64,000 bases of DNA from Moniliella sp. 'wahieum' (GCA_003971905.1 RSEE01000010.1:434001-498000); one strand, 5' to 3'. Positions 1-61,970 are shown, numbered from the stretch's first letter. Notes: generated by a model from the sequence alone, not told the origin. Numbers and translations are program-made.

Positions 1-1408
1 CGACCCTTTCTGGCGACCTAGTATGTGCGAGGAGCGCGGAGCAGCATGCATAGGCACGTGCGCTGGAGCGACGCAAGCGATATGGTATTAGCAGCAGGAC
101 AGAAACTACAGAAGCAATAGGTGAGCTTTGCCACGCATGCTAAGCGCTTAGGCTAAGCTTAGCGCTAATGGGCGAGACAGCGGCGGGACTGACAACATAG
201 GACAAGTATACGGCGTATCGAGTACAACTGGCTAATCCTTGCCTGTTATGCGTTACGCGTTACGCGTTACACCGCAGGGATTAAGCGCCAACAAGCCCAC
301 ACCTGTGGCACAGACACTGTGCCTAGGACTGGAACGACTTTTCTAGGCAGACGGCATGGTGGCGATCGCTTGTCGCATGCCCATGTCAGCCTCAGGCGAG
401 GGGCGGTGGGTGCGTACAAGCTGAGAATTCTACTGTGCTAGCAGGCGCCGTCCCACACTATATCGGGGAAGCTAGTGCCAGCTAACGTCTAACGCTCGTG
501 CAGGTCCCTATGTATCAGCCACAGCAACAAGCGCATCACATACATCAGGCCTCAGGCTCAGGGGCAGGCATCATGCATCATGCATCATGCATCAAGTGAT
601 TCTCCAGATCGAGCCCCCAGCGCCTGAGCGCTCCGCGAGCGCCTCAGCCAACGCATCCTCAGACTGGCCAGAGGCCGAGTGCTCAGTCTCAAGAACGAGC
701 GCCTGGGGAGAGAACTACTGACACTGACTTCCTAATCAAGTCATCGATGACTGGTATCGGTGAGCCGGAACGGAGCAAGATGGCGTTCGGTGCCAGTGGT
801 GCAAGCTGGTGCAAGACGGCGGGTGCACACGGTCGGATGTGCAAGACGATCGCAGGGTGCAAGAAGCGACACTCGGTTCTAGACAACCCTTTGATCCGCC
901 CCACTCCCGCCTCGCACAGCGGCCAACCGCGCCGGCGTATCCCTCGCCGCCCAGCCACAACCGGCCACTGATGATCGATGAGATCGATGAGACTATCCTT
1001 TCCCGCGCGTCCACGCTGTCCATGCACTCCCGCCTGTGCCCCGCCCGCATCGAGTACTGAGTGCTAGTACCGACTGACCACTTTGCTCCGAACCAATGCA
1101 GGTGCGCTGTCAAATGCCAGACAGGAGAAGTAATGTTGGACTTAGCCTCAACGTCTTCGACGTTGCTACTGCACTGATGCGATCGCTGACAAGAGCAGAG
1201 CAGCAAAGCGGCTATACTCCCGTCACGCATCACGTCATGATACCGACCAGACGACTACCAAGCCCACTAGTCCTGTACGCAATGCCACGCCCTACAGCCG
1301 GTTGGGCGGCAAGCTAGGACAACAGAGGAGCACAGCTGGACGAAAGGAATTGTTGCTTGTTCTTCACTCCCTCCAGTTACCACCCCCTCGCCCCCACACA
1401 CGCCTTTC

Positions 1409-3057
1409 ATGGACTCCGTAAACGATCTCTCCAAAACGCCCGACTCGATGCGCCTGATGCCCCGCCCGGGTACAGGCGCCAATCGTTCCGCCAGCACTAC
1501 TACTGGGTGGGGAGCCTCTGACTCAGTCTTTAACCTTGATCCCAACTCCAGCAAACAGGCGCTCACGGGTAATCCCACGTCCTTGGATGGGGTGCTCCAC
1601 CATCCTTATTCCCTCCCTGGCGGGCCCAGGGAAAAGCCTCAATCTTGGCTGGCAGCTCACAAAAAACTGCTGTTAACACTGGTCGGGGTGCTGGTCGCCC
1701 TCGCTGTAGCCCTTCCCGTTGGTCTTGGTGTCGGTCTGAGCAAAAAGAATACTCATGGAAGCGGAAATACCTCCAAGCCCAACAGCCCAGCACTCGACAG
1801 TAGCGGCAACGACCCCAGCAAAATTACCCCCCTGCCGTTTTGGGACTGGGCTGACAACAATCGAAAAGTCATGGGTGTATCTCTTGGGGGTGGCTGATTC
1901 TTGAACGTTGGATCGATGAGGATTGGTTCACCCAATATGCTCCTAATGATTGGGACGAGTGGCACTTTACCCAAACTATCGGCTCCAATGCGTCTCAAGT
2001 CCTGAGCGAGCACTATGACCAATGGGTCACTGAAGACGAGGTGGGACGATGTATCAACATGGAGTTAACCAACTGCGTATTCCTGTCGGATTTTGGCCGT
2101 TCATTCCCCTCGCAGACGGGGAACCGTACAGCAACTCGACCCAACTGCACTACCTCACTCGTATGCTCGGTTGGCTATGGAAGCGCACATGTACGCCGTT
2201 ATCGACCTCCATGGCATGCCTGGCTCTCAGGTACGTCACTTCCCTTATCCCTTTGGTAGCATCTACATGCAGCATGGTTCCTATGTTTCTGACCCTTCTC
2301 TTTTTTACAGTCGGGTGACCAATCTTCGGGACTCAACACGACCAATCCCACATGGTGGAATCAAGAAAACCAGGACCGATCAGACCAGACGCTGGCGTCT
2401 CTCATTACTTGGCTGTCCTATAACCCCTACAAGTCCGTCGTCAGCGCCATCTCTCCCGTCAATGAGCCCAACGGCGTTTTCCGCAGCACGCCAGCTAACC
2501 TGAACGTGACTCAAGCATTTTATGAGCGGCCGTACGAGACACTGCAAAAGGCTGGGTACAGTATGTTTTTCCACCATGGTTTTGCCTCAAATCCGGCGAC
2601 GTATTGGAAACCCTTTGCAACAGGGAAAAATGGGTCCATGCTTATCATCAATGACATCCGTACCCCGGATGGTACCCTGCTGTGAACAACGTGACGGAGA
2701 TTAACCAGAGAGTCTGCAAAACGGTGACTGATTATGATGGGTTCCCTGTCCCGATGGTCAAAACGGAATACTGTGTGATCTCGGGTCCGACGGATTCGGC
2801 GTGGAACAGCCAATACTATGCTACCAAACAGCAGCCTATGCTTCTGGAGCAGGATCCTTTTTCTGGACGTTCAAAGTGATGAATTCCACTTCGATGGTCC
2901 AGGCTGAATTGCCATTGAACCAAATGCATTTTCCTTCCTTCAACAAGCAACACTGGGGACCATTCCGTCCATTGGCACAGGCCAGTCTACGACCCAGTAC
3001 ATTGCTGCGCTTCCTAATCCAGCCTGTGGTGCGATGACCCCTACATACAACGCCTGA
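1409..3057 (+). CDS. Glycoside hydrolase family 5 exo-beta-1,3-glucanase-like protein with N-terminal membrane anchor (intron ~2231-2310; several indel frameshifts)
   Basis: Motifs read across frames: GVSLGG(W)LILERW, HYDQWVTE, GVNQLRIPVGFW, IDLHGMPGSQ, ISPVNEP (acid/base Glu), GSFFWTFK. Hydrophobic segment LLLTLVGVLVALAVALPVGLGVGL. Stop TGA at 3055-3057. Confidence 0.85.
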
Positions 3058-4407
3058 ACGCTTTATCCATGTTTGTATCGAGCAGAGCGCATCGTGCCCC
3101 TGAGATGTTATGAAGTGGACGATGCACCGCGTATCTCTTGACTGAAGTTGGTTTCCTCTCGTTTTGACTTGGCCTTTTCCCTACGGATTATCAGCCCCTA
3201 TCCCCGCTCCCTCTTTTTGCTCTGCCCAGGCCGCCATGATGTTCCTGACATTGTGGTCGATGACTTCTACTGTGTACTTGTTATCGGACTGTGCTACTTG
3301 TGTCTTTTGCATTTGTGTTATGTTGCCGAATGTGCATCCCTCCTTTGTACTGTGCGTTTCGTATATTCACAACGATGTTTCCCCCTTCCTGTTAGATTAT
3401 TTGGGTACATATATGTGTGTAGGCATCAGACGAACAATATCGATAATGGGAAGAGATGAAAGCTTTAAGGCATAGAGACGCAGGGGATGAGGCTTTCGTT
3501 TTCAAAGCTCGTAGGTGTGGGCCGTGGAACTTCGACGTGAGGAATGAGAGGTAGGGAGATATCTCCATATTATTGTCTACTACTTTTACGACAGGGTTGC
3601 TGTGCATTCCTTCGCTGCCCATATGACGATGAGTGAAGCAAAAACTAATGCTGGCCTTCTCTAGTTTGTGTAGCGATTGTGGGAGACCAGAGGCCGTCAT
3701 TGAAAAGAGGGTAGCAGTATGGTTTAACGTTTATGTTTCTCGATGACCCTTGGTCATTGTACCATCGCACATGCCTATAATGGTTTGTTCAACAAGTGTG
3801 GTTGTGTCGCCACAGATAAGTACACTTCAAAAGTGTTTTCCTTTTTCACAGTACCGCTATATTCAGCTTTTAACTCTCTCACGTCACTTACCAAAAGAAC
3901 TTTAAAAGGTGAACGGCCTCCCAGGACCTCGTTTCTGGGAGGAGTATGTCATACTCCTCAGCTCTGCTGGAAGTCCTTCTCATCTATTCACCGCCCTATT
4001 TCCTTCTCTCTTTCAGTGTATAAATCGTTGGCTTCCTTGGCACTTGTTGGTTCTATTTTTCTACCATCCTAATTCGGCTCCTGTCACGTTACAATGTGCG
4101 TCAGCTCCTGCAGTACTACTGGTCGATCACGTGGAGCGGAATCCGACAAATTCCGATACTTGTGGTGCGCAGTGCATTACGTGGTCCCCCGATGATCGAT
4201 GATCGATGATCGTTGGCATCGATGAGCTGCTGAGCAGGACTGAGCCGTTGCGCCACTGAGCTGGCTGGCTTTATTGCCTCAGTAGCTCAACAAGGTTTTG
4301 ATCTGGGCCACAGCGACATCTCAGAGCCACACAACAGCGTTGCTTTGTCCCACCAAATCGCCGCTATCTCTGCCATTCGCTTCTTCCTTCCCCCTTCCTT
4401 GCCACCC

Positions 4408-9841: not shown

Positions 9842-10105
9842 ACATAAGAATATTGCGGCCTGGTCCGGCGCTATGTCATGCAGCCAAATTGAATCGCCAA
9901 GTAACTGGCTCCCTTGCGGATGCAAAATAGTATCAGGTAGTCGTCTCTATCCCAGCGGAAGGTAACTGCATCGTGTCCATGGCCGTGCATTGGCCCGTCA
10001 CGCGTCACGCGTCACTAACGTTATTAAATAGGCGCGAAGTCGCTTGGGGAAGAAACATGCCCGTTGAAATATTCATTCTAATACCAAAATTCTGCTCCGC
10101 GCCAC

Positions 10106-19662: not shown

Positions 19663-20654
19663 GGCGACGGGGGGAGGGTGGTGGGTCGCGAGGTGGGGTT
19701 GGCGCCCAGAGCGTCTCTTAGCGGCGGCGTGTGCGTGTGGGGCACAGCAACACGGCGGGCGCGACTGGCGCCGTGCCGGAGAAGGAAGCGGTCTGTGGGG
19801 TTGCGTGGGGGCAGCCAGGGGTTGTCACCGGGGGTGGTGGCTACGATGGGTGAGTGCCTGTGAATGTCGCAGTGGTGCACGCGACACTGGCCCTGTGCTG
19901 CCCATGCAGGCACCCGCACGGTGCATGTGGAGCAGAAGGCGAGCGAGCGAAAACGCACACTCGCCGGACATGGCCCTGAGCGCGAGCGTATTAACAAACC
20001 AGCTGCTAGCTCTGAGTATCTCCTGACTACATCCTGCGGGCCCAGTAGCTGGCGATGCGGGAGATGGGGGGATGGAGATGGAATTCCACAGCTAACAAAA
20101 AGCGCTACCGATGGGCCGTGATGTATAACAGGCTCCGGGCTCGGAGGCCAAGAGTGGAAGCCGTGGAACGTCTGGGATGCACTGCCCCCATGCACTGTGT
20201 GTATCGGGTCACGTGCAACTGAAGCTTGAAGGCCGATGGACTCTGGACCACTGGTGGTCAGCACAGGACTTACTCAGTGAACAGTCGGGGCTAATAAGCG
20301 AGGGAGATCAAGCTTCAAGGTCCTCTGTCTTCCAGAGACGGGGAAATGGCAAGATTGTGGGAGGAAACAAGACGCATCATCAGGCCTCTCAGGCCCTCAG
20401 GCAGGGAAGGAAAAAGCAAAGGGAAGGGGAAGAGCGAGATCAAGGCGACCATCGATCACAAGGTATGCCCAGAATTGGTACTTTTTGGAGCGAGCATATT
20501 CCATCAAGCCCCTTTTAGGTCTGAGCTCAGAACTCAGTCTGAGTACTGAGACTCAGTATCAGTGTAACAATGGGGGTGTAACATGTAAGCTCTAAGTTGG
20601 AGAGCAGTGTCATGCTCATGCATCATGCATCAAGCCAGTGCACCACTGTTGTTC

Positions 20655-20854: not shown

Positions 20855-22250
20855 CTACACATGGACTAGCGTCGGGAGCTTACAAGAGGCTATATATATG
20901 TGACGGTTCCCTTCTCTCTCTGCGCCCCATATGTCCTTAACCTGCCATATGAGATCTAAGAAAAGCCCATCATAGTGATGCAAGTGATGTGACGCCACAC
21001 TGGTGTTGTGGCGCCGGTAGCCCAAGTCCGAAACCCTCGAGATCATTCCGTGCAATATTCTTTCCTGGCGAGCAGGAATATTCTCTAGCCTTTGTAGCTC
21101 ATGTGCAATACAATACACTACCTGCCACCTGCTCTCTGGTCTATAACAAGCGATCCTTGCGTTATAGCACAGGCAGCCACATAATTTAAAAGTGCTCTCT
21201 GGGGACGACCTCCTCGTCCTCCCAAGTGGAACGCTCAGCGCATACTACCCCTTATTATGCTTTACCAGAGGCCCTTCCCCATTCCCGGAGGGAATGCCCT
21301 GATGTGAAGAAGAGGCTATATGCGTGTACACTCTCAAAATTGTGAGACGTACTAGATGGATAGTTAGCCCAGGTCTCCCTGTCCTTTTCTCATCCCTCTG
21401 GTCGAGTCGCGACCACCACCCGGTGCTCGTGGCACCATCCGATACTTCTCCTTACCCCTTTTATCAAAATGGTCTGATAACCCACTGCAATGGCTGAGAG
21501 TATTCCTATTGAGTAACATCCCGACGCAGCAATACCGGGCCCTATATATTCCCCGGGGCCCAAAAGATACGACCAGATTTTTTCTATATCCCTCTAAGGT
21601 TAACTGTCATTTGCTCGCATATGATGGTGTCATGAGGAATGTTCCCCTCGTTGAAGACAAATGACGTCGATAAAGGCTATCTTGACTTGAAAGTGTTTTG
21701 AAATAGGTCGTGGGTCTTTGCCCAAATTGTATTAGCACCACCTATAATGTACTCACCTGGTAACTGATGTGCTTGTGTGTCTTATCGAAATATGTTCATC
21801 GATCGTCGTTTTGAAGCGTTCATAGCATGTGTTGAACCTTAGGGACAAAACGAGGCGCTACAATCCCTAAGGAACTTGTCATTCGGTTGTCTCCTGTTAG
21901 CCCGTGGCAACCAACAATCAGGAAGCCACAGTGATTCCACCAAAGCAACAGGTTATATGACTTTCTGACACTCACTATTGGCTTCCAACTAAACTGGATG
22001 TAGCGCAAGAGATCAAACTACAAACGAGCGGGTTAAAGGACTGATGGGAGCGCGGATGAGCGATGAACTCCTCGAAGAACCCCCGTGACGGGATTGCAGG
22101 CTTCCCGGGTGGAGACTTTCCCTACTTATAGGAGACAAAAAACTCTTGGAGGACTGAACGCGTTTCATATCATCAAAGTGACAGTACTCCAGCGAAACGA
22201 AGGAGGGTTGCGACCGTGACTTGCTATAGTACTAGTCGGGAAATTAGCTT
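20855..22250 (-). pseudogene. Possible degenerate spliced gene or element relic of unknown type
   Basis: AT-richer block with minus-strand splice signals (GTAAG at 21455, CTAAC at ~21365, TAG at 21352; GTGAGT at 21756) but only short, stop-interrupted frames. Confidence 0.25.
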
Positions 22251-22956
22251 AGAGCTTTTTGCGCATCATAGAGAGCGGGCATGAAGGGAGATTAGGGAAG
22301 CTCCTATGGGCGAAAAGGGCAAGCGAGCTGTTTGAAACCAGGTTCTTCTACAGAAGAGAGTTGGAAAGGGGGGAGAGGAATAGTGTTGGGTGACTTGGTC
22401 TTTTCGCAATTGTGAGATCAAGGAACAGGCAATTTTTTTAGATTAAATATATATATAGGGGACAACAAGACTAAAGATGTGGGCTAAATAGGGAAGGAGA
22501 GAAGAGCAAGGGGGGGATGAGTCCAAGGGAACTGGGAGAGAAGAATGGAGAACAAATACACGAGACAGGAGAGAACGAGCCGAGGGTCACGATGGGAAAA
22601 GGACCCCAGAGGCAATAAGTGAGTCGAGACATTGAGCACAAAACATGTGTGCACACACAGCTTTGAGAAATGTGAGTTGTTGTCAAAAAGACGAGAGAAG
22701 GAGAGGAGAACAAACTGAAAAAATCAGAGAGAGCAGAATAGACAGACTGAGGAGAATAAAAATGGTTCCCATCAAGACAGCAAGAGGCGGGTAGTGATGT
22801 TGAGAAGAGGAGAGAAACCGAGAAGGGTAAGAAAAGAAGAGCGAAGGTGGCTTCACTCCGTGGGGTCCCCACATAGATGTTGGCCCATGACACCAACACC
22901 TCCCATGATACTTTCCAGTCAGTTCCTTCAATATCTTGTGGGCAATCTTGGGCGCT

Positions 22957-22994
22957 GCGTTTTTCTTTTATCCCAGCCTTAAGCTCTCTCAATG
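22957..22994 (+). repeat. Copy of the ~35-bp retroelement 3'-terminal motif
   Basis: GCGTTTTTCTTTTATCCCAGCCTTAAGCTCTCTCAATG matches the reverse complement of 61387-61421 and 60485-60534. Confidence 0.6.
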
Positions 22995-23278
22995 ATATGG
23001 TTGCAGAATAGAGATGTGCGTTACGAAGCGGATGGGTGAAATAGTGTTAGTTGGGCTTCCTACAACAAAACGGGTAGTTTTTAATCAATTTCTGTCGCTG
23101 ATCCCCTGCAGTAGCAACAAAAGACCACCATGTCACCAAACTAGCTTACCATGTAACTACGGATATGCCACTTGTCGTGTGCCAGATGTCACGCGGTCAC
23201 GTCTCATTGATGATCGTTAAAATGCACTCAAAAAGGTATCATATAAAAAAGGATACAGGAGGAGTCATCTCAAAGAGG

Positions 23279-24890
23279 TTACGTCTCCTTGTGGCCCCAC
23301 TTGCACTGGAAGGGGTGACCCACAGTGCCGTCTGAGTAGCCTTGCTTGATGCTCTCGGCTGCAGCGTACATACCAGCACCCAGGATGACAAAACCCATCA
23401 GGATGATCAAGGCGTTGACGGTGCACAAGATAATGTTTTTCTTGCTTGCGTTCCACTTGCCCTCCTTGAGCAAGATAAAGTACATTACTGGAATCAGAAC
23501 AGAGTTAGTACGTGCATTAACGAGAGACGGAACCAGGCGGGACGTACGGGCTGGGAGGTAAAGAGAAGGCCGAGATCAGGAAACTTGAGATGACGGAGAG
23601 AAGAGATGAGAAGAATGGAATAGCTTCGGCCTACAAATGGACTCATTAGTATCAAAGCTGCGAAGAGAGGAGTTGGGTACGTACAATGACCCACGAGATG
23701 ACAGTGAGGATGGCACACAGTCCGACCCAAGCACCCATGCCGAGGGGAGTGTTCATGTAACGGTGAGGAGTGTTCTTAAAGACACGAACGTGAATGTAGC
23801 GAGCGGCCGTGGTGGTGTTGATCGAACCAGAAATGAAGATGACAGGAATAGCAACACCAAATGCAACACGCGAGACCGTGTGGCCGGCTGAAAGAAGGGC
23901 AGGGGATTGGACTTCATTGCCGACAAATACGTATACAATCGCACCCGTAAGAGTGTAGATCAAAATCTCGGCGATACCAAGGGCCCAAATCGACCTCATG
24001 TACTGCTTGGGCTTCCGCATCTCAGCTTGGAAACTAGGCTGGCAAACAGCAAACGAGAACGCAAAGACGATGTCGGTGACGGAATTGAAGGCTTCCGAGA
24101 AACTCGTGCCAGGAGGGGCGGTAGAATGCCAGTCGACGCCGTCGAGGCCACCTGGGCTGTTGTGCGCGCGAATGCCAGTAGCAATCATGGTGATCAAGAT
24201 AGCGGTAATGATACTAACGAAGTCGATGATCCCTAGCAGGGAAACCTTCTCGAAGGTGGTTGGAAGTGCGAGAACGAACTAGTAGACAAGTCCAGGGTTA
24301 GCGCGGGTCCAGTCGTGAATGACACCAACAGGAGCGTAACATACCAAGACCACCGCGGACACGACCGACCACACCAACTTGCAAGCGCGACCATCGGCAA
24401 TGGTCGACAACGCAATCGAACCCGTCAGGGCGTGAGAGCCCGTGATAAGGATAAGGAAGAGCACGAACGCACCCCCGACAATCTCACCGCCCCACTTGCC
24501 CCACATGAGGTAGCCAATGTCGGAGTAGTGCAAGACCTCGATGTCCCACTCCTTGTTGCATACTTGTCCCACAAGATAGGAGGTGTAGATGGTGATCAGG
24601 CCGATGGACACTGTGAGAATGACGCCAGCAGGCAACCCAACCTGAGCAAAGGCACCTGGTAGAGAAAGAGCACCCAATGCGATGGCAGTCACAATAAGTA
24701 GAAGGGCCATGCGGAACCAAGAAACAGTCTTGAGGTTGGTCTCCTCGCCATTGTAATCGCCTGACGAAACGACGCCGTTGTTGTAGTCCTCCGAAAGCTG
24801 CTTCTCATCCTTCAATGAATTGTAGGATGGGTCGTCACGAGTGGTGGATGGGTCATGCTCGATCGGAGCGCTGTAGACCGTGTCGGCCAT
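23279..24890 (-). CDS. mtr: Neutral amino-acid permease (Aa_trans/AAAP family, Mtr-like), ~3 introns
   Basis: VSWFRMALLLIVTAIALGALSLPGAFAQVG, HYSDIGYLMWGKWG, DIVFAFSFAVCQPSFQAEMRKP, VQSPALLSAG, AIPVIFISGSIN; about 11 TM segments. Confidence 0.88.
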
Positions 24891-27601
24891 GTTGTGTGCG
24901 GAGGAAGAAAGGGGGACGGAAAACGGGTGGCGGTTGAAAATGAAGGTGCGTTATATCTAGCCCAGGCGATGGGGAGGGGGCGAGACGGGGAAAGTAAAAG
25001 GGGGCTGTGGTCGGGTCCGCTGGCTTGAGGCAGTCGAAAGCAGGCCATGCCAGGGCAGAACAGGAAGACTGGCTGGGTGCGGACAAATGTCCGCTAGCCT
25101 GGGCGCCCAATCTAGGCGTGGGTATACTGGCCCCGTGCTAGCGGGAATTTCCGCGGCTCACCGGGACAACCGGACACTCGCAAAATGCGATAGTGCAACA
25201 CTGGCGCCAAGCGCGACAACTGGTTTTTTAGAACCCGCATTTTTCCTTCGCGGCTTAGTGGGGCACTAGGTAGCACTACGCCCGAGATAGTCAGGAACCT
25301 GCGGGACAAGTCACATTCGTAGCCTATCATCGAATATCGTTGTGCCTCTTCTTCTGCCAGCCCCGCCAAGGGCAGTGCATCTCACTGCGGTTTCAGTGGC
25401 CCCGAGGGGGAAGTAGTGACATGTGATTGATGATCCATGATGCATGATGCATGATGCATGATGTGCATGCATGGCGCAAGGATGTCACCCGTCACGCGCA
25501 TCACACATTATATATGCCGGCGGCACCCCTCCACTAGTTCATTAGTCACCGGTCCTTAATCGGCAATCACCGGACCGTCATCGATCATCGATCACCGGCC
25601 ACTGGTTACACTCGGTGTCAGTATCAGTATTTGGCGTGGGTTCTGGGCGTTGCCGCGGCTGTCGTCTGGTGCTTGCCGGTGCTTGCGGCGCACCGCAGAG
25701 CACTTTTCGACCAGGGCCAAGCGATTGTGCGCTAGTGCTGTCCCCATCATGCATCATGCATCATGCATCATCGATCATCGACAGTCGAGCTTAGGACCGA
25801 AGTCTCCAACCGGCCTAAGACCTAAGGCCTTCCTAAGGCCTAAGCGCCTAACCGGCCTAATCCTCGGTTCCTGCGTACCTAGTGCGGCGTCTAAGAAAGG
25901 TATGTGGTGTTGATGCATGGTACATGAAATTTGAAAGATCTAAGGCCATATAGATCACCAATCGACGATCAATCAATGTAGGTAAAGAAAAGATCGTATG
26001 TCGCGCGACCGGCGACCCGAATCCCCTGCGCCCCCTCCAGCCCTTGGCGCACTCGACAGGGAAGATGCACGATAGTCAGTGTCTAAGTGCCGCGTTAGAT
26101 TGCTGCAAGTCAGTCTTACACCTTTAGGCAGCTCTGGACGCCGTCTTCGCATCGCTCCGGCTGTCAGTGTTCAGCCCAGCAAGAACGATGCGCCTCGGCA
26201 GCGCTCCTGAGCGGACCAGCCTAAGGCGTAAAGCCGCTTAGCCTGCGCCACATTGTAGTGTGAGTCTGGAGTGCGCTGAGTGGGTAAAATACTGATGACT
26301 TCCATCGAGGCTCTAATACTGAGGCTCAGGCCTCAGGCGCTAAGGGCTCAGAGGCTCAGAGCTCAGACTGAGCTTCAAGGTCTCTCCTCGGGGCTAAGCG
26401 CTAAAGGCCGGAGGGTCTGAGGTACGGAAGAAGTATTAGTGGGGTGGGTGGGAAGGCTTGGGTGCTTGGGCCTGCTTGCACCTCCTGTTAGGCACAAGCG
26501 CGAGTCTTCAAGCTTCCAGCTTTAAGTCACTATAGTGAAATCGCTAGTCACTAGTGGTTATAGTGACTATTATAGTGACAGTCACTTGTGTCCATTCTCA
26601 AGCTCTCATATTCTCAAGCTCAAGCTCCAAGGCCCGTGACGAGTGCGCATGAGGCCTGAGCCTGAGCTGAGGCCCTGAGGCCCTGAGGGCCTTGCCAGGC
26701 CTTGCCTAGAGAAGTTACTAGTTACTAGTTATCGAGTTATCGAAGTTATCGATTATCCGATGTGAGCTGTTGAGCGCATGTGACATGTGGCATGTGAGCG
26801 CGTGCGCGTGAGGGGGGAGCACTGGGGGCTACTATACTACTACTACAGTTGGGGTCGTGGCGCTACTCGTTGAATCATGCACATGCATCAGGTGGGCAGA
26901 AGCCGTCTGTCCATGGCCTATCTATAGAGCATCATGCATCATGCATCATGCAGCACGCGCCACGCACCATGCATCATGCGTTTTGCATTATGTATCACCG
27001 TATCACCTCTGCCCCTGTACCGGACTTTGTCTCTTCTATCTCTCGGCTGAAAGATTGCCTTTATATTTCCGTGTCTCAGTCGGGCGGAAGTTGCTAAAAG
27101 AGAACGCTGCTTGCCCCGGACTTCAGTAGCTTCAGTCAGATTTCTTCCGGCAGGAACAGCAGCACTACGACAGCTATGCACGCTGAAAGTTAAACGTTAA
27201 ACGTTAAACGTTAAACGGTAAAAAGGACTACTGTCCTGCATGTCACATGTCAATGTCGTGCATGTCGCTATCGAATATGAACTGGTGACTAGCGTGACGA
27301 GTGACTAGGCTAGTGCCACAAGCCATGTTTAGCGTTGCAGGAGCCTACCCAGTGCCTACTCTGCCATTCCTTTTTCCCGTCCCCGACCTTCCGGGTCTTT
27401 TCTAGCTTTCAGCTTTAGAGTGAAGCCGAGGCCAGTCCTGGCTTGTATCCGGAGGCCGCAATGCGAACTCAACGATTGGCGCTTGGCGACCATCGACCAC
27501 CGATGAGCGCGATGAGCATCTATCATCAATCATTTTTCCCCCTTGCTTTGGTTTTGAAAATCGCATTACGTATTCCTATGGCCTAACCGATAATCCTCAA
27601 C

Positions 27602-27955
27602 TTACATGGTAGCCAACTCGCTTCGTACGTTCTTGACGTCCAATGTTTTCAACACACGATATGCATTGCGGAATAACACTGAGACAGAGTACACTGGGTT
27701 TCTCATTTCTACCACCTCTTTCGTAACGTGCAGCCTGTAACATGCGACTCGACTCCCGATGGGCTGTTCTTCGATAATCGATAATCGATCGGTCGTCATC
27801 GATCCATCTATCATCATGAATCGATCATATGTAGATAGACCGTGCATCACATATGCATAATGCCATGAATGGATGAATCCTTCTTGGTCGGGCATAGATA
27901 TCTTGGTGGTTGCCCTATACCTGCCACTACCAACAGGCCTTTCTAATACCCCCAC
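27602..27955 (-). CDS. Hypothetical ORF fragment (117 aa) next to a Helitron end
   Basis: Open, normal-complexity frame in an otherwise non-coding block; in-frame stop ~10 codons upstream; no recognisable motif. Confidence 0.25.
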   Translation of the reverse strand: MGVLERPVGSGRYRATTKISMPDQEGFIHSWHYAYVMHGLSTYDRFMMIDGSMTTDRLSIIEEQPIGSRVACYRLHVTKEVVEMRNPVYSVSVLFRNAYRVLKTLDVKNVRSELATM

Positions 27956-28154
27956 AATTGTGACTGTTTTCTTATCGCGTTTTTAATCAAACTCCCCACC
28001 GACAGCATGTGAGCTTATGCGCTTATATCCCTATCGCCTATCTCTATGTCATGCGCAAAAAGGATCGGCCCTGCACTTTTACATCAGCATGCCCCGTGCC
28101 ACGTCCGCAGCCACCCACCAGCGCGTATCGGTGATATTATTTCGTCTTTCCAGC

Positions 28155-28321
28155 GTGGAACGGTGGCCGGTGGAACGGTGGCCGGTGGAACGGTGGCCGG
28201 TGGAACGGTGGCCGGTGGAACGGTGGCTACGGTGGCGAAAGGGGAACGGTGGCTAAGGTGGCAATGGTGGGGGGGAACGGTGGCTAAGGTGGCGAAGGGG
28301 GAACGGTGGCTACGGTGGCGA
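28155..28321 (+). repeat. 15-bp minisatellite (GTGGAACGGTGGCCG) x ~5, then degenerate copies
   Basis: Four perfect units plus a partial one at 28155-28227, followed by GGAACGGTGGCTA(A/C)GGTGGC variants. Confidence 0.95.
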
Positions 28322-28331
28322 CGCAGCACCA

Positions 28332-28390
28332 AGCTGGGGCGAAGCCCCAGCTGACCGGGCCGTAGGCCCGGTGGTCTCCTCGTATACTAG
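28332..28390 (+). mobile_element. Helitron-like 3' terminus with two consecutive hairpins
   Basis: AGCTGGGGC-GAA-GCCCCAGCT (28332-28352), ACCGGGCC-GTA-GGCCCGGT (28354-28372), CTAG at 28387-28390; subterminal minisatellite upstream. Confidence 0.6.
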
Positions 28391-28801
28391 ACTGTGGGCT
28401 CTGTGAACTGTGGTGTGATTAATGATTAATGATTGGCCGCATTATGCATGACGCACGGTGAACTCATTGAGCACAGTCTCGGAGAGTTGAAGACATGCTA
28501 TTCTCTCCGCATATGGTAGGAAGGGTTGGGTTATTAATAATGCCGTATAGAAACGGGAGGGTACCCGTCGGGTGTATGAGAACTTCGTGTCAAAAAGTGA
28601 ACACCTTGCCGTGAACGTTGATGAACGCGTTGAACAACTGTAAGCTTATAAAGCTTTTTCCTGTTTTGGGCCACCGCGGGTCGCTAGTGTGTTTTGGCCA
28701 ACGTCTCCCTTATTCAGTCCCTCTCTTCAAGGCTTCAGGCCTGAGCCTCAGGCCCTCAATAAGCCTATAGGAGTTCAACCGTTGCCTTTTCTCACTACTT
28801 G

Positions 28802-29203
28802 ATGAGACTTTTGGAGTCCGGATGGTCCTCGAGGGTGATGCAATCGCACTGATGGTGGTGGTGGTGGCCCAAGCCATCCAGCAACGCCTACAGAGGAACT
28901 TCAAGCAGCGAGTCGCCACCAGGGGCTAAGCTGCGGAACAATAAGGGAAAACAGGAGAGATAAAACAACGGAGAACTCCTAGGCCTGAGGAGAAACTGAA
29001 GGGACATTGATGAAAGCACGAGCCACCCAATGGTTCAGCACTAGTACTGTTTTCTTTGTTCCGCAGCCTAGCCCCCGGTGGCGACTGTGGCTGCTTTTGA
29101 GATGTTCCTCGCGAGGCGGTGGTGGTTGGCGTAGACCACTGCTTCCACTACCACTAATGCAAATTGTGTGACCCTCGAGGACCATCAGGACTCCAGATCT
29201 CAT
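28802..29203. repeat. Imperfect ~140-bp inverted repeat with ~115-bp spacer (foldback/MITE-like)
   Basis: 28802-28941 (TGGAGTCCGGATGGTCCTCGAGGGT...AGTCGCCACCAGGGGCTAAGCTGCGGAACAA) aligns to the reverse complement of 29056-29203. Confidence 0.85.
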
Positions 29204-30036
29204 ATCACCTTCAAGCTTCAACTGTCAACAAATCTCAGTATACATTACTCACCGTACTAAACATACTCAGTATATACTCACGACTTTACCGTTGCCGAAG
29301 CATCAAGTGTTACGTTTACCGTGACTAAGGTGACTATAGCTCAACTCCTGGCTTTCAGTGGTGGTAGACCTCACAGTACTCAGTGGGCAGAAAGAACCTC
29401 CGGGGACCGGTGCCCTCTCTAAACCGTTTGCGAGAGGACCACGCAGAACAGATCTCACGTGTGCCATGCCAGAGGTGCCACCCAGGGTGCACGGTCCAGC
29501 CTCGGTCAACGTTCAACAGGCTCGTCCATCGCTATTCCAACACATCCATACGGTTCAAAACGTTCTCATTGTGAAATGTATCGAGGCATAACGGCGAAGG
29601 AGTTGAATGTTGATTGGCAGTGACTTGGGAGGACTACACCTCTAAACTAATAGCGGAAGGTGCTAATATAAGACAGGATGAGAGATCATGTCGATCATGG
29701 GACTCGGAGTTGAAGGTGCGTTGGAGCTAATAGAGTTGGGTTTGTTGGGCCTGGGTGCAGCAGCATCTATTATTAGTCGATAGAACCTGGGCCATGGGCC
29801 CGTGACGATACAGTGAGCACATAGCGGATCATTCAACAGAAGCGATGTTGTGGTTCCGGACGAAGATGAAAAACGTCCCATGCATAGTTGTATTCGCATG
29901 ACCTGCATGACTGATGTTAATCACATCGCCATATATTATTGCTATTGCACCACACTCTAATATAACGGCTTGAAGTGCGGCTTGGGTTGGGCACTTCACA
30001 ATCGTCTACTCTCGCACACCATCCTACCGAGCTTTG

Positions 30037-31828
30037 TTAATCGACACCCACCGCCCATACCTCGAGGGCGATGCACTCGAATTTTTCCCCCTTGCGCTCA
30101 CTTCCAGCGCTGGTAGGGAACGCGGTCGTGTTGGCCAAGAGGTCGTTGTCGAACGTGACCGACACCTCCGACACACCATTTTCCAGCTCATCGTCCAACC
30201 ACAGACCATACCGTCCATCTGGGCCTCCACCAAAGGCTAAACTCGATCCTTGAGCCAGGCAGGCGTACATGTTTCGTCCAGACCATGGGAACAGTTTAAG
30301 CATGCGCCCCGCCTCGAACACCCCCTCGGCACTTCCCCGTCCAGGTACCTTCACTGTCTTCCACAGGAACGCTTGGCCCGAGCCAAAGTAGTGGGGCTGG
30401 GGATTGATGGGCTCGTTGAGGAAGGCGCCGAAGACGTTGCCCTCGGCATCTTGAACGGCAAGAACCAGACCGGCATCGTGCATGGCCAGGCCAGATAGGG
30501 AAGCATTATGGGACGCCCGGACAGAAGCTTGGGATGTTTCCGGCCGTGGAGAAGTTTCGGAAAGCCCGCCCGTGCCATCGTCTGCAGCCAAGGCAAATGC
30601 AGCGGCAGAGGAAGCACCACGTAACCAACCTTCGCGAGCAGCGGTACGCGAAGCCGAGGACTGACTCATCAACCGTCCTACACGATCATATAAGGTTTGC
30701 AAGCTGACCCCATGCTGGTCCGTCGAATAGACCAAGCCCCACCCGCGGCCGAGTTGTAGGCGCGCAGGAAGTACGCCCTGGAGTTGGCCGGCCAATCCAG
30801 GTCGGACCACTTCACGCGTATCGGCATACTTCCTCGCAGCGTGACCATCTGAGCGCGGCGATGTGCAAAACGTGATTCAGCGGCGGCTTGGGGGGAGTTG
30901 CCTGTCAAGACACGGACGCGCTCGAGAGGATCAACAGCAGTGGAGGTACGCGAGGCGAGAGAGGAAATTGAAGAAGTGGCTTGTACATTGTGTGAAGGTA
31001 ACGTATTAGGTGTGGAGGGTAAAGTGCTGTCAGGGTCGGGGGCGTGGTGGGATGGCAGGGTCCATTCTGCTCGGTTCCAATCTCGGTTGTCAAAGCGGTC
31101 TTGAGCCATACTGAAACCGGGCGCTCCGGAAAGGACGGGCCCCTTTGTGGGTGCAGTAGTGGGTGAAGTCGTTGGCGGAATCGTGGTGTGTGCAAGCTGC
31201 CGCGAGGGGCGTGGATAGGGGGAAGGCGAGGGCTGTTTGGAAGGTGGCGGTGGGAGAGTTTGTTGGTACGCTTGGAACTCGGGGTCGTCAGCGGCCATGT
31301 CAAATAGACCCTTGGAAGATGGGGGCGAGGAATATAGCTCCAAGCCTCGTCTGCCGCTCCACGGGCTCGTCCCCCGATTTGGCGCAAGTTCATGTTGCCG
31401 AAGGTGCGCCAAAGAGTGTCGGACCAACCCGAATGAGACGCGGGCGGATCACCCAAGGAGGGAGTGGAGCCGCGGGCGAATGGAGATGCGGGAGGATTGG
31501 GCAAATGCGCTTCGTGATCGTCGGGATGGACGGCACGGTGATGGGCGACGGTGTGAGAGGAATGGCATTCTGGGACGGGTGGTTTGCCCGGTGCGTCGGT
31601 CAGCGGCCCAAGTGGGATGGACGGGGTGGGCCGGGCAGGGTGAACAGCGTCCGAGCCGGCGTGGGCTGGATCGGCGCGGGAAGGGGCCGGGGTGGAAGCA
31701 GGCGCAGCAGCCAACACTCCAGAGGACGTGTGGGATGCCGTGCGAGTGTGCGGGGGAGCAGTCATCGCAGAGCAAAGGGGACACGCTCCAGGGGGTGGTG
31801 CTTGGTACTGGGTGCTTGGCACTGGCAC
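30037..31828 (-). CDS. OXR1: Oxidation resistance protein 1 (C-terminal TLDc domain); start uncertain; frameshifts
   Basis: WGLVYSTDQHGVSLQTLY, VQDAEGNVFGAFLNE, YFGSGQAFLW, LAFGGGPDGRYGLWLDDELENGVS...TFDN, FECIALEVWAVG. Confidence 0.9.
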
Positions 31829-56443: not shown

Positions 56444-56532
56444 TTCCCTAGCAGTGGCATGGCGCTGCCAAAAAGTAACACACACAAGATGAGCGTAGAG
56501 TTTCCCTGTCCCCGCCTTAAGTTCTGTCAATG
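56444..56532 (+). mobile_element. Short 3' fragment of the CRE-like retroelement (stop codon region plus 3' UTR)
   Basis: TTCCCTAGCAGTGG..GGCGCT.CCAA..AGTAAC..CAAGATGA..GTTTCCCTGTCCCCGCCTTAAGTTCTGTCAATG matches the reverse complements of 61387-61692 and 62863-62962. Confidence 0.7.
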
Positions 56533-56731
56533 TAATGATATGAATGCATAATTAAGGCGATTAAAGCTTAAAGGCTCTTGAGTGCGCCCTCCGGCTGGTA
56601 CATAAACTTTAAGGGAAAGACAGCTCTCTCCTCTTGGTTCTGAGTATTAAAGAGAGCACTCGGTGACCGGCACGTAGAATGAAAATCATCAGGCTATATA
56701 TCTCTGATGTACACGTGACATATATAGGCGT

Positions 56732-58758
56732 TCAGTACCAAATGGGCAGGAGCAGCAAGAAGTGATGAATGATCAGGAATAGGAAAGGGAGGGACAGAAA
56801 GATGCGAGACAAAACAGGGCCATTGTAGCTTGCCTGGGGAACTAATACCCCTCCAATGAAGTGACGTGATTGATAATACAGAAGCCTAAGGCTGAATGGG
56901 TGATTCGGCCACCTTCTCCTGTGTGGGTGGCTTTCGATGTCAGTGGCAGCTGGAGATTCGGCCCCCTTTGCATCCTGGCGATCGATCTCTGCACGTCCAG
57001 TGTCACTAACTGGGCCATCCAACGTGGCCTCGGTCTGGACGGCAGCGTATGGCGAGCGAGCACGGATGGCCGCGCCCTTCCAGATCAAGATGAAAGGAAG
57101 GGGGATGGCAATAGCGATCAGAAGACTGAGCAGTAGACCAGCGTACTGAAAGCCCATGTTGTTGAACATCTGGTTGGTAAACAAGGGGAAGCTTGCGGCC
57201 ATTAGGTTACGAATGAAGCCTTGAGCACCAATGGCTGAGGCACTCGACTCCCCGTACGCATCAGTCAGATATGCCTGCACCGATTGGAAAATCCACACAA
57301 TTCCGATCAGAAGTACAGCGAGGCCGATTTCGGGGGCGATCCAATGCACCCACGTGTAGGGGGCCGTAAAGGAAAAGATGAACATGCCAATAGTGGATAC
57401 AATGCCCCCTGCGGCGCCGTAGTACAGGCGCACCTCGGGTATGGCATGCCCACCGTGTGCGTCGGCAGATTTCTGGTAGAGGTAAGAGTCGTGGAAAAGG
57501 AACACCCAGCCAATGAAGGTGCCAATGATTGGACCAATGTAAGCTAGACCGGTGTTTCCTTCACCCCAGCCACGCTTTGTGGAGAAGGCAATTGGAATGG
57601 CACTGAAGAGGGCAAAGATCAAACTCCACGTATGACAACCAGAGGGAGAAGAAGAGGACAACTGGTTCCTTCACAATCATTACCGCCGCCGAGTCGTAGA
57701 GACCTTGAGAAGTTCCTTCAAACTTGGCGTTTCCAATTCATCTCGAGAGCGATAACGGTTATCGCCTGTCTCCTTGCGCAGCTTCTTGGCTCGGCGCGAA
57801 AGGAGAGCACTGCCACGGGGCTCACGCAAGAAGATGCACTCTAGAATCAGTGCGGTGCCATTGATGGCCATTTGAATCCACTCGATGGCGCGCCAGCCCA
57901 GATTGTGGCGTGCATCAATGTATCCAGCATATAGAGGCGAAGCAGCTGTGCCCAACACGGCGACAAGGGTGAAGAGCGCGACAGGTAGCCCGATCTCGTT
58001 GGGACCCAGATTGAAGCGAGTGTTCCCGGAATGATCGTCACACCGGCTGCTCCAAAACAACCCGAAAAGAAGCGGCCAATAACAATTGTCCAAATATTCT
58101 GCGCCTCAAAGAGAGCCACGAACCAAATGACAAACCCAGCGTAGCAGATCAGGTAACGGGTTGCGCCCCAACAAACTCGGACACGGGCCCCAGAATAGGA
58201 GGAACCTACGAAGGAGAAAAAAAATCAGCAACGCATTTCCCCACATCAAAGCGAAAGCGGGTATAGTGGTGAAATACGTACCAGGGCAAAGGCTACGTTG
58301 AACGCGGTAAAACCCACACGTCCAAGTTCAATTCCTGTGTGTAATCCATCTCATGGTTAGCATTGTTCCCCAAAAAATAGGGGCATAGACGTACCAGATG
58401 CATGCAGCTCCTTGCACATTCTTGACACCGGAACCATAGGCGGCGGTTGCCAAACCGATGAAGAGGCACATGGCGCACAGGAGACTGGTGTTGGTCCATT
58501 TTTTCATCTTGGACCAGTTCATGGGGTTCAGGGGGTCGTCAGGCCCATCCCAGTCGACGAGGATGATCTTGCCCTCCGATACCTCTTTGAGGATATCCTG
58601 GTTAAGGTGGGTTACAGAACCATGATCGATACTGGGAGATGCTGTATGTGTCTCCGCCTCGGATGTTGCAGCTGCCTCGGGTCAGCGTCGGCTGTAGTGT
58701 ATTGTTCCTTACCAGGAAAGATGTCCGCGCGGGTGTTTGATTGCTTCTTGAGGACCAT
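56732..58758 (-). CDS. MFS drug:H+ antiporter (DHA1 family); introns and frameshifts; 3' end uncertain
   Basis: VDWDGPDDPLNPMNWSKMKKW, IVIGRFFSGCFG, LGWRAIEW, PEVRL, YLTDAYGESSASAIGAQGFIRNLMAASFPLFTNQMF, IRARSPYA. Confidence 0.92.
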
Positions 58759-60076
58759 TGCAGGCAAATAAGAGCCGTCGCGATAACGGAGAGAGTTAAT
58801 AAGATGTGATGGAGATGGAAAAAGATGCTGATAAGAGTGGAAGGTAGAAGTAGTAGAGGTCGCAATCTGTGTTGGTGAGATGCTTTCCAACACGACGGAG
58901 AGGCACTGCTTTAATACAAGAACCGTCTGGCCAGATACAACCCCTATAATACTTTACTAATGAAGAGTAGCGAGACATAAAACATGGCGTGCCGCTTGCC
59001 GGCGAAACGTTTGAGACTCTAAATCTGTTGGACCTAGGAGTTAGGCCTTACGCCTTCTTGGACCTTAATAGGCCTCTTGAAGCTTGTGAAGGGGTTTTGA
59101 TCTTCTTAGACCTCAGATCTCAGACCACATTTTGGGCCCTGTCTGTACTGCGCATCAAAAAACCGGCGTAAGTGCTCCGATCCCCCTCATTTTCGCCTCT
59201 ATCCCATCTGGTGAATAGTTAGTACTAGCAGGAGAAACAGGAATTCGTCACCGTTCCTACACCCCCGCGGGGCTCCAGTCGGACCTGGAACGATGTATCG
59301 AACCGTTCTCTCCCCCGCATTGTTGTGGTGAACGCATGAACCGTGGATGATGATCGATGACGTCGATGACAGTGGCAAGTGGGCTCAGAGAGTGCGCTAG
59401 ATACTCAGGATGAGCCTGAGGCCTGTGAGATTTGAATCTGACGTCTGATGGATCTGAGATCTCTGAGATCTGAACGTTGAACGTTGAACTTCAACCGTCA
59501 ACGTGTCTCAACGCGTGTGAGCTTCAAGCGTCAAGCTTCAAGCTTCAAGCTTGAAGACACTGAACGCCGCTGATGATGATCGATGAACGTTGAACGTTCA
59601 GTTGAACGTGCGCTGAACTACCTTTTGGTACTGGTATTGAACTAAGCACAAATACTACCAATGGAGGACAAGTACAGGCATGTATTAGCTCCACAAGATG
59701 GTCTTTCCCCTTGGCCCTATTCATAGAGGGAGACGTACCCGGGAGACCCACAGCCAAGAAACAAGCAGTATATAAGAGTAATAACAGTATAGGTAAATTT
59801 GTGACTAGGCCTCCCTATTGCCTGCCTGCCTCTGGTCTCAGTGCCTCCGCACGCCTCAGCACCGCCTCAGCACAGCCTGTGACATGCTGACATCCCTGGC
59901 AGTATGTTCATCATGCATCATCACTATACCACTAGAGCAAAACTAGCAAATAGCCCTAGGAAGAAGTACCTCTTTTAGTACTTTCATGAGTAACCGATAA
60001 CTCGATAACCGGTAACCAGACGCCGCCGCTATGGGCGCGCTATCGGCTAATTATATTATCGATCATTAATCGATAA

Positions 60077-60152
60077 TCATCGATCATCGATCATCGATCA
60101 TCGATCATCGATCATCGATCATCGATCATCGATCATCGATCATCGATCATCG
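60077..60152. repeat. Heptamer microsatellite (TCATCGA) x ~11, the longest member of the TNA + palindromic tetramer family
   Basis: Ten perfect units at 60077-60146 plus TCATCG. Confidence 0.98.
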
Positions 60153-60484
60153 TCAACTAATATATTCCTTCCCCACGCTTGTTGATCAACTTGTCATCGA
60201 TACAGCGTCATGGATCTGTTCCTTGCAAAAAGCCCCACGCCTAGTCAACCTCTCTTCTACCATCGATATACCATGGGAAATCGATTCCTTTTGGGGAAGT
60301 TCAACTGTACACACCTCGGTGCATCATCAGATGAGATGCTGTGAGAGTGTGCTTTCCGAAAAGTTGCGTGTTGCCGCAAGGTCAATGTGGAAAAATAACC
60401 CTGAAGGAAGGATATGTCTTGTGCCGCTGGCGTACTCACGCAACCACGTGCAAAAGCCAAAATCTCTATATGCTGTAACTGTAC

Positions 60485-60534
60485 CATTGACATGTGACAT
60501 GTGACAGAGCTTTAAGGCTGGGACAAAGAAACGC
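60485..60534 (-). repeat. Retroelement 3'-terminal motif interrupted by two CATGTGA heptamers
   Basis: CATTGA-[CATGTGA]2-CAGAGCTTTAAGGCTGGGACAAAGAAACGC versus CATTGA-CAGAACTTAAGGCTGGGACAGGGAAACGC at 61387. Confidence 0.7.
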
Positions 60535-61386
60535 TCTCCTGTACCCCCAACAGGCGAAGCACGGCGGGGCCTGTGGGGGTTGGTGGAAACTGTGGAGGAG
60601 CTGCAGCGAGAGACACAAGGGTGCGGAGAAACTGAGACCAGATCACTGTGAAGACAGCGTGGTGGCTTTTAAATTTTATGCCGTTGCTGCGCCGCTGTCG
60701 CGCTCTTGGCCCTCGCTTCTGCCGCAACCTATCGACTCACTTAGTACTCAACTGAGTCACTGATGCACTGAGTTACTAGTTACGGATGCCTTGATGCCGC
60801 GCCGTACAAAGTAACGTTGAACGTTTTCCAGTCTGAGGCCTGACGCGTGACGTGACGCATGAGGGCGGCCTGAAGCCCTGTGACATGTGACATGTGACAT
60901 GACATGCATGACATGTGAAGTGCATGTGAAGCTTTTGAAGCTTGAAGCTTGACGGTTGGAATTGAATATTGGAGCTTGAAGCTTCAAGAACCTCTAGCTT
61001 GAAGGCAGCTCTCGTAGCGAGCTTGCAGTGGCCTCAACGCCTCAGCACCTCAGTACCTCTGGTAATGCTGAGGCCGAGGCTGAGGCTGAGCAGCGCTTGC
61101 TCAGCTGAGCAACCCTCAGGCCTGAGGGCCTCAGGTCCCCTGCCGCTATTATCATTAGATTATCATTAGACGACTTGAAGCTTGACGCGTGACGAGGGGT
61201 CACCGGTCACCCTACGGATCCCTTTTTAAGCTCTGAGACTTCACCGATCGGCATGGCGCCCATCCCGGAGGCCTCAGCCTGAGGCCTCAGCCTGAGGCCT
61301 GATGCATGATGCATGATGTGTATGATGCCTGATCGAGATCTCGCTGACGTCCAAACCCTTATATTGATCCCTATATTGATCCCTAT

Positions 61387-61950: not shown

Positions 61951-61970
61951 TATAGTTGAAGGTTGATGAC

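Follow-up and report, generated by a model that had tools for sequence, protein, structure and literature searches.

INTRODUCTION

Transposases of the hAT, Transib and MULE families, as well as RAG1, form hairpins on the DNA that flanks the excised segment; enzymes of the host, for example Artemis, open these hairpins, and end joining then seals the DNA (PMC5499845). The excision of the hAT-type element Ac/Ds in Candida albicans was described as producing 28 footprint types in 128 events, all of which were short deletions or insertions of palindromic nucleotides (P-nucleotides) in runs of up to 3 nucleotides (nt) that could be explained by hairpins, and the two predominant footprints were one base apart at the fusion site (PMC5873905). 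Here, we describe a footprint-like pattern in a 64,000-nt stretch of DNA from the fungus Moniliella sp. 'wahieum' (GCA_003971905.1, RSEE01000010.1:434001-498000), which is further called the window, with positions counted from its first nucleotide. The window contains many 7-nt units, each composed of a four-base palindrome and the trinucleotide T-N-A, where N is any base, which occur either singly or in tandem arrays. The inserted tetramer is copied from the adjoining flank, so that a flank-templated 7-nt unit is added at a TNA site. Each unit, further called a scar, reads as the record of one stereotyped mutation at such a site, as judged from the rewrite rule that is legible in the sequence.

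The target motifs of cut-and-paste elements are palindromic (PMC3276498). According to Tables 3 and 4 of the same survey, the Drosophila element 1360, which belongs to the P superfamily, has a modal target duplication of 7 base pairs (bp) and the TNA-centered motif GTTNAAC; the survey also gives 8 bp for hobo, and 5 bp with the motif CCANTGG for Transib elements (PMC3276498). The duplications listed for active Cryptococcus elements are 3 bp, 8 bp, 4-8 bp, 5 bp, and 6 bp, and the part of the source that lists them mentions no 7-bp duplication at TNA (PMC12810828). A search of full-text literature, in which subscription journals were largely missing, found no account of palindromic heptamer insertions anchored at TNA in fungi.

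RESULTS

Flank-templated heptamer units at TNA sites

Exact tandem runs of at least 2.5 units were counted in the window according to their period. The data showed 21 runs with the period of 7, five with the period of 6, one with the period of 8, and none with the period of 9, and many rows with the period of 7 were also present in the Tandem Repeats Finder output. The unit was a 4-bp palindrome followed by T-N-A in 21 of the 22 exact period-7 runs of at least 16 nt, the exception being the run at 63856-63873. This unit could alternatively be parsed as a 6-bp palindrome A-NNNN-T with one free base.

The whole 64-kilobase (kb) window was searched for every chain of the form TNA-(P4-TNA)n, in which P4 is a 4-bp palindromic tetramer, and in which the base N and the tetramer are the same throughout. 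This census gave 70 chains at 64 loci, which included 51 one-unit, 14 two-unit and 4 three-unit chains, and one array of 10 units. According to the half-site rule, a chain starts with the right half of its tetramer or ends with its left half. In 32 chains the first TNA was directly preceded by the right half of P4, and in 32 the last TNA was directly followed by the left half. The half-site was found on the left only in 25 chains, on the right only in 25, on both sides in 7, and on neither side in 13. Hence, a half-site was present in 57 out of 70 chains, compared with about 12% expected from a random match of roughly 1/16 on each side (P = 5e-40).

The 62 chains in which the two tetramer halves differ provided an internal control of matched base composition. 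Among them, the flank was equal to the predicted half in 29 cases on the left and 28 on the right, and to the wrong half in only 2 and 1 cases, respectively, which amounts to 57 predicted versus 3 wrong halves. The number of TNA-P4-TNA cores was 101, compared with a mean of 2.9 and a maximum of 8 in 100 first-order Markov simulations, while 91 cores with a half-site were observed versus 0.28 simulated. These data confirmed the half-site rule as a genuine feature of the chains, which departs strongly from randomness. Exceptions to the rule are the 13 chains in which the half-site is missing, such as those at 25578-25594, 20616-20632, and 60936-60952; in most of them either one of the two half-site bases matches or the array has decayed.

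When the target is written as XY-TNA-ZW, and a prime denotes the reverse complement, the left type of event is XY-TNA-ZW -> XY-TNA-X'Y'XY-TNA-ZW, and the right type is XY-TNA-ZW -> XY-TNA-ZWZ'W'-TNA-ZW. The original prediction had listed nine arrays, from which it proposed a locally templated 7-nt insertion that turns XY-TNA into XY-TNA-revcomp(XY)-XY-TNA. All nine arrays were located at their places with boundaries that obey the half-site rule, and the census of the window supports the proposed insertion. The rule also holds outside the arrays, as a half-site was present in 41 of the 51 one-unit chains.

Boundary phase of the chains

The seed length of a chain was defined as the length of its full period-7 run minus 7n. 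Among the 70 chains the seed was 3 nt long in 5, 4 nt in 7, 5 nt in 27, 6 nt in 14, 7 nt in 6, 8 nt in 6, 9 nt in 3, 10 nt in 1, and 12 nt in 1, with the mode at 5 nt. For the chains with seeds of at least 5 nt, the numbers expected from a 5-nt seed extended by chance are 32.6, 16.3, 6.1, 2.0, 0.6, and 0.3 chains in order of increasing length, and 27, 14, 6, 6, 3, and 2 were observed, which is a good fit with a somewhat heavy tail. The exact extensions into the flanks were (2,0) nt in 12 chains and (0,2) nt in 14 chains. A random boundary phase, which the original prediction had named, for a genome-wide set, as an outcome that would speak against it, was not seen in the window.

Several simpler ways of making such chains were compared with these boundaries. 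After plain 7-nt duplication or slippage the leftover would be 7 nt, which differs from the observed mode of 5, and only two real cases of plain 7-nt duplication centered on TNA were found. A 3-bp duplication of TNA together with 2+2 bases of element ends would leave a 3-nt seed. With a 4-bp palindromic target and a 3-nt footprint, the seed should be 4 nt long and both ends should carry full tetramers. If the tetramers were derived from the ends of a transposon, they would not vary; the window contains 15 of the 16 palindromic tetramers, each matching its own flank, and their usage roughly follows the occurrence of the flank dinucleotides. The models of slippage, TNA duplication, 4-bp target, and element ends all fail on the boundary phase or on the tetramer variety, and it follows that the tetramer is a copy of the flank. 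The boundary rule is what separates flank templating from more ordinary explanations.

One of them would be that the units are heptamer microsatellites, which arose by slippage from chance proto-repeats, or that they are palindromes selected as protein-binding sites. The location of the arrays in promoter-side intergenic DNA fits this explanation, and so does the single 10-unit array, which exceeds the 51/14/4 series of the shorter chains. On the other hand, chains grown by whole units should end in a random phase or with 7 nt left over, and 51 of the 70 chains are single events without any prior repeat. A binding site would also not need to match its flank, whereas the tetramer here is free in sequence and yet flank-matched. 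The boundary phase, the flank matches, and the single-event chains largely refute this explanation, which we consider very improbable. The 10-unit array is nevertheless an outlier, to which slippage probably also contributed.

Two tetramers around one common TNA were found at six compound loci. In all six the tetramer that corresponds to the left flank is located on the left, and the one that corresponds to the right flank is on the right; five of these loci are complete, and one misses the left half-site by one base. Every compound locus can be read back, from its present sequence, to a single ancestral site XY-TNA-ZW. Such loci can be explained by repeated hits at one TNA with the use of either flank, and they cannot be made by slippage. 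They are in agreement with the earlier suggestion that the product of one event could be targeted again. The main arrays and compound loci, as well as the large intergenic regions that contain many of them, are listed in Table 1.

Table 1. Positions in the window of heptamer arrays, compound loci, and large intergenic regions rich in scars
Feature	Position	Setting or inferred target
Complement-N variant TAA-GCGC-TTA with left half-site GC (one of 10 such)	139..152	
Left-type array CG-TTA-(CGCG-TTA)x2	251..269	
Left-type array CA-TCA-(TGCA-TCA)x3	569..594	
Left-type array CG-TCA-(CGCG-TCA)x2	9996..10014	Between RPN2 and Kae1 genes
Large intergenic region, scar-dense	25100..30039	Upstream of amino-acid transporter gene, downstream of TLDc gene
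Compound: left part TGCA x3 (left flank CA), right part TCGA x1 (right flank TC), one common TCA	25745..25779	Inferred target CA-TCA-TC
Left-type array AG-TTA-(CTAG-TTA)x2, exactly 19 nt	26713..26731	
Array GT-TAA-(ACGT-TAA)x3-AC with half-sites on both sides, followed by one unit with a point change	27189..27216	
Right-type array (TGA-TTAA)x2-TGA-TT, exactly 19 nt	28416..28434	
Large intergenic region, densest in scars (31 cores in 60001-62000)	58954..61392	Upstream of MFS-type transporter gene
Compound TC-TGA-GATC-TGA-(ACGT-TGA)x2-AC	59462..59489	Inferred target TC-TGA-AC
Compound GA-TGA-TCGA-TGA-ACGT-TGA-AC; next to it, at 59591, a TGA/TCA complement-N variant	59575..59595	
Longest array (TCA-TCGA)x10-TCA-TC, right-type	60077..60151	
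Right-type array (TGA-CATG)x2-TGA-CA, exactly 19 nt	60488..60506	
Array TG-TGA-(CATG-TGA)x2-CA, half-site on each side, continuing as decayed copies to ~60929	60879..60899	
Compound CT-TGA-AGCT-TGA-CGCG-TGA-CG	61174..61194	Inferred target CT-TGA-CG
Compound CC-TGA-GGCC-TGA-(TGCA-TGA)x2-TG	61291..61318	Inferred target CC-TGA-TG

Target specificity

The pattern is specific to T-N-A among all trinucleotides, with 39 cores for TGA, 38 for TCA, 13 for TAA, and 11 for TTA. The other trinucleotides together gave 101 cores, of which the commonest, ATC, CAT, ATG, and GAT, look like re-parses of TNA arrays, and each of the remaining ones gave 1-5 cores. The pattern also requires a palindromic spacer of 4 nt: the spacer between the two TNA trinucleotides was palindromic in 101 out of 167 cases when it was 4 nt long, compared with 1 out of 75 for 6 nt, 1 out of 50 for 8 nt, and 16 out of 43 for 2 nt. 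The central base N is unconstrained, as the ratio of C/G to A/T was 44:20 in scars versus 909:448 at background TNA. At the same time, N is copied directly: when all pairs of N were arranged in a matrix, the 101 same-N cores were on the diagonal, with 14 cores in the complementary cells and 6 in the other eight cells. The positions -3/+3 showed a mild preference, with C or G in 72% of hit sites versus 54% of unhit sites, and C at position -2 was present in 17% of hit sites versus 33% of unhit sites.

Two kinds of sites stand out by their sequence. Half-targets in which the flank bases are the same as the last two bases of TNA (CA-TCA, GA-TGA) include those at 569-594, 25745-25771, and 60077-60151. 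Such seeds were found in 13 of the 57 half-site chains, compared with 10.7% of background half-targets (p = 0.008), and they hold 31 of 85 units, among them those of the 10-unit array. Microhomology may aid the formation of the joint at these sites, or units of this kind may slip more easily. Sites of the GGCC/CCTNAGG type (61268-61300 and 26640-26700) carry more varied scars, which include a 13-nt period with alternating TGA and TCA, as well as forms with a 5-nt duplication and either no or one added base; several joint types seem to have accumulated there in the same place.

Proposed pathway of insertion and hairpin excision

The explanation that we prefer, with a probability of roughly 0.5, is insertion with a 7-bp duplication centered on TNA, followed by hairpin excision and joining without loss; the agent, as well as both of its reactions, we infer from the pattern of the scars. 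If the enzyme were of the DDE type and worked as a symmetric multimer, it would be expected to cut symmetrically about N, and such cutting together with the net gain of 7 nt would imply a 7-nt stagger, that is, a 7-bp duplication of XY-TNA-ZW. In the first step of the proposed pathway a cut-and-paste element, or a transposase-derived enzyme, would integrate with the 7-bp stagger centered on N, which would duplicate XY-TNA-ZW. Excision would leave both flanks as hairpins, and each hairpin would be nicked 2 nt from its tip, resulting in two 4-nt palindromic 3' overhangs. A nick at 3 nt would not change the product, owing to the complementarity of T and A. In the top strand the left flank would gain Z'W' and the right flank would lose XY, and the bottom strand would be changed reciprocally. 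Each overhang would next be ligated across the gap to the opposite recessed 5' end, after which the top strand would be of the right type and the bottom strand of the left type. This heteroduplex could then be fixed as the left or the right type by replication or by mismatch repair. The net change would be equal to the 7-bp target duplication, because no base would be lost or gained.

Repeated visits to the TNAs of a scar would add identical units and in this way produce arrays, while a visit that used the outer flank would start a second tetramer and produce a compound array. The symmetric 7-bp pathway would explain the gain of exactly 7 nt, the 25:25 split between the left and right types, the half-site rule, the compound loci, and the lack of inverted bases from the TNA side. 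This lack would, in turn, be a problem for a symmetric 5-bp model.

The pathway would also accommodate some of the variant products. A complement-N class with the form TN'A-P4-TNA, which is a perfect 10-nt palindrome, was found with a half-site in 10 cases versus 0.34 expected, and without a half-site in 4 cases versus 2.4 expected. This class still has the net gain of 7 nt, and looks like a longer inverted copy of 4-5 nt that reaches N, such as could arise when the hairpins were nicked at 4-5 nt. Unequal nicks in the two hairpins would lead to the rarer forms with net gains of 6 and 9 nt.

The product can also be described literally as 5+2, which means that a 5-bp staggered break or target duplication at NN-TNA, similar to those of Transib or RAG, is combined with two P-nucleotides from one hairpinned end. 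This description gives a product identical to that observed, and it fits the seed mode of 5 nt, although a 7-bp duplication with 2 nt exchanged gives the same mode. The occurrence of length variants also speaks for it: the 5+1 form was observed 8 times versus 1.4 expected, and the 5+4 form 2 times versus less than 0.01 expected, with none in 100 simulations. Other forms speak against it, as the 5+3 form was not observed, and the 5+0 form was near chance, with 10 cases versus 5.9 expected. The literal 5+2 break would moreover require that the target is asymmetric, so that one end of the 5-mer is formed by TNA, and that the P-nucleotides always come from the XY end. The form with inverted bases from the TNA end, XY-TNA + revcomp(NA) + XY-TNA, occurred 33 times, but in 32 of them XY is the same as NA and the two forms coincide, which leaves 1 true case versus 93 of the XY form. 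The target motif given for Drosophila Transib elements in Table 4 of the survey is also CCANTGG and not TNA (PMC3276498). Hence, the proposal in the original prediction of a 5-nt duplication with two palindromic bases fits the sequence of the product, while the literal 5-bp staggered break with hairpins, which we regard as doubtful, was revised in favor of the symmetric 7-bp pathway.

Several observations weigh against the symmetric 7-bp pathway. The census sees only the products that obey the rule, and their apparent uniformity is partly by construction. The sequence of the product, which is identical for a 7-bp target with a 2-nt strand exchange and for a 5-nt duplication with 2 nt added, cannot tell the two apart. 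The 5+1 and 5+4 forms do not conserve the gain of 7 nt. The complement-N class could have arisen later, by template-switch correction of a quasi-palindrome, which makes it supportive and not decisive. Known hairpin footprints are diverse, as shown by the 28 types among 128 Ac/Ds events that were described in Candida albicans (PMC5873905), while here one form dominates. The density of scars, which would need very heavy traffic of elements, counts on the same side, as do the searches described in the next section, in which neither a transposase domain among the ORFs examined nor an inverted-end element with an NNTNANN duplication in the window was seen.

Distribution of scars and search for the responsible agent

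The scars are concentrated in intergenic DNA. Five intergenic regions, which total 9,909 nt, contain 56 of the 70 chains and 487 unhit TNA sites, so that roughly one TNA in ten is scarred there. In the whole window, 62 of the 101 cores were located in the 20% without open reading frames (ORFs) of at least 100 amino acids (aa). The two tracts with the most scars are those at 25.1-30.0 kb and 58.95-61.4 kb (Table 1). Scars were absent from two short regions where gene ends converge (near 49.0-49.4 kb and 52.1-52.5 kb), which are a small sample. With about one scar in every 150-200 bp of the intergenic DNA, an element responsible for the scars would need to have had very heavy traffic.

The protein-coding content of the window was examined for a possible enzyme, and no transposase domain was detected in 150 of its 152 ORFs of at least 118 aa. 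A scan of the window for inverted ends flanked by identical NNTNANN 7-mers returned only self-matches inside the arrays. A candidate motif for element ends occurred 10 times in the window, which we estimate to be about the chance number. One pair of this motif, which brackets 25381-29817, was considered as an element and rejected, as it showed neither matching ends nor a duplication.

A long imperfect foldback of about 410 nt is located at 28800-29207, with outer arms of 45 nt that are 80% complementary, and with further inner pairs of arms. Its right end abuts the scar at 29209-29220. It resembles a small non-autonomous element, but no 7-bp target duplication was seen. The sole dispersed pair of copies in the window is located at 61648-61815 and 62919-63086, in direct orientation; the copies are at least 168 nt long and 82% identical, with one 12-nt indel. 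The first copy begins right after the scar at 61632-61647, and its edge there is unalignable; the pair was uninformative.

These results could be explained without any mobile element, if a host nuclease or a domesticated transposase broke the DNA at TNA, and the break was followed by snap-back or turn-around synthesis and end joining. The scars would then be the products of an endogenous, promoter-biased mutation process. No element was seen in the 64 kb and no transposase domain among the ORFs examined there, the density of scars is very high, with about one intergenic TNA in ten affected, and the single outcome is strongly stereotyped, all of which are in line with this explanation. Because the scar density implies such heavy traffic of elements, the involvement of a host enzyme retains its weight. 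However, a direct repeat of 5-7 nt needs both staggered ends to be filled in and not re-annealed, which the integration of an element achieves. The templated insertions that repair polymerases make usually vary in both length and source, and we know of no host enzyme with a TNA-centered 7-nt stagger. In view of these points, we consider the action of a host nuclease rather unlikely, and prefer the explanation by insertion and hairpin excision of an element or transposase-derived enzyme.

Genomic setting

The ORFs of the window, which are split by introns, matched RPN2, Kae1/TsaD, a PUF protein, an amino-acid transporter, TLDc, Rab GDI, and SNF5, and further matches were obtained to a kinesin-3 with an FHA domain, SIR2, DnaJ, a protein O-mannosyltransferase (PMT), and an MFS transporter. 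No tRNA or Rfam families were found in the window. The GDI exon was 72-74% identical to proteins of Tilletiaria, Thecaphora, Pseudozyma, Ustilago, and Malassezia, and closer relatives exist with identities of 95%, 81%, and 78%. On the basis of these similarities, the source fungus is placed within the smut-related subphylum Ustilaginomycotina. A metagenome scan with the ORF at 56732-57670 returned no relative, and one with the PMT exon returned only 10 distant loci with 30-46% identity.

The region of the amino-acid transporter gene at 20858-25000 has a lower G+C content of 48-50%, with a strong skew of A over T and of G over C. It contains no scars despite the long ORF-free stretches at 21245-22473 and 23047-23654, which may be introns or transcribed DNA shielded from the process. 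Two other tandem repeats are present near the scars. A perfect 15-nt repeat (4.9 copies, 100% matches), which passes into a GGTGGC-rich 57-nt repeat (2.4 copies), is located at 28155-28323 inside a large intergenic region; it is unrelated to the TNA rule. A 21-nt repeat with 6 copies and 87% matches at 61991-62118, directly downstream of the ORF 61393-61956, may be a coding or non-coding minisatellite.

DISCUSSION

Among the described systems, the footprints of hAT elements share with the scars both retained copies of the target and flank-inverted bases at the junction, but the 8-bp duplication typical of them is not found here. The duplicated target is kept in the scars as a direct repeat of XY-TNA, of which 5 nt are visible and 7 would be present according to the proposed pathway, in the 57 chains with a half-site. 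The short inverted copies of the flank at the joint, where the predicted half was found 57 times and the other half 3 times, are also similar to those left by Ac/Ds. The existence of two predominant alternative products that differ at the fusion site is shared with the Ac/Ds footprints as described in Candida albicans (PMC5873905). In contrast, Table 4 of the target survey gives for hAT an 8-bp duplication with the target NTNNNNAN, while the scars show the net gain of 7 nt at NN-TNA-NN (PMC3276498). The inverted copy in the scars is also highly uniform, with a length of 2-3 nt, sometimes 4-5 nt, and the scars are dense in the genome and stacked in arrays. Additionally, no hAT element or domain was present among the examined ORFs of the window.

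The geometry that we propose would correspond to that of the Drosophila element 1360, for which the survey tables give a 7-bp duplication and a palindromic target with T-N-A in its center (PMC3276498). The outer positions of the hit sites do not fit GTTNAAC, however, with -3/+3 being mostly C or G and C being depleted at -2. The mode of excision would be different as well. P elements excise with long 3' overhangs and are not known to form hairpins on the flanks. To our knowledge, the 1360/P family is not known from fungi.

The resemblance to V(D)J coding joints and Transib elements is also partial. Palindromic nucleotides, which in these systems result from asymmetric opening of hairpins, are present in the scars as well, and the 5+2 description fits the product. 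In V(D)J and Transib joints, however, P-nucleotides are expected from either end, while here they come from one kind of end only, and coding joints are diverse. The motif in the survey for Transib is, moreover, GC-rich (PMC3276498). Footprints of the Tc1/mariner type resemble the scars in that the two target copies are separated by a few inserted bases, the number of which is fixed. The bases inserted by Tc1/mariner and PIF-like elements are derived from the element and constant, in contrast to the variety of flank-matched tetramers observed here.

These comparisons leave room for a new agent, which would have acted at about one in ten intergenic TNA sites, and which would be either a new cut-and-paste element, with a 7-bp TNA-centered target, hairpin excision, and strand-exchange repair without loss, or a hairpin-forming nuclease kept by the host. 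Its scars would turn non-repetitive DNA into heptamer repeats without slippage. We put forward this possibility only tentatively. If it is true, it would mean that a sequence-specific, promoter-biased mutator continually reshapes the regulatory DNA of this fungus. If the proposed pathway holds, the scars in this genome would be a dense record, at base resolution, of hundreds to thousands of repair events at DNA hairpins, and could serve as a way to study how fungi open and join hairpinned ends. They would also be an example of tandem repeats born by iterated visits of a transposon and not by slippage, and would point to an element or enzyme with a 7-bp, TNA-centered target. As the scars are located mainly in large upstream regions, they may be a steady source of promoter variation.

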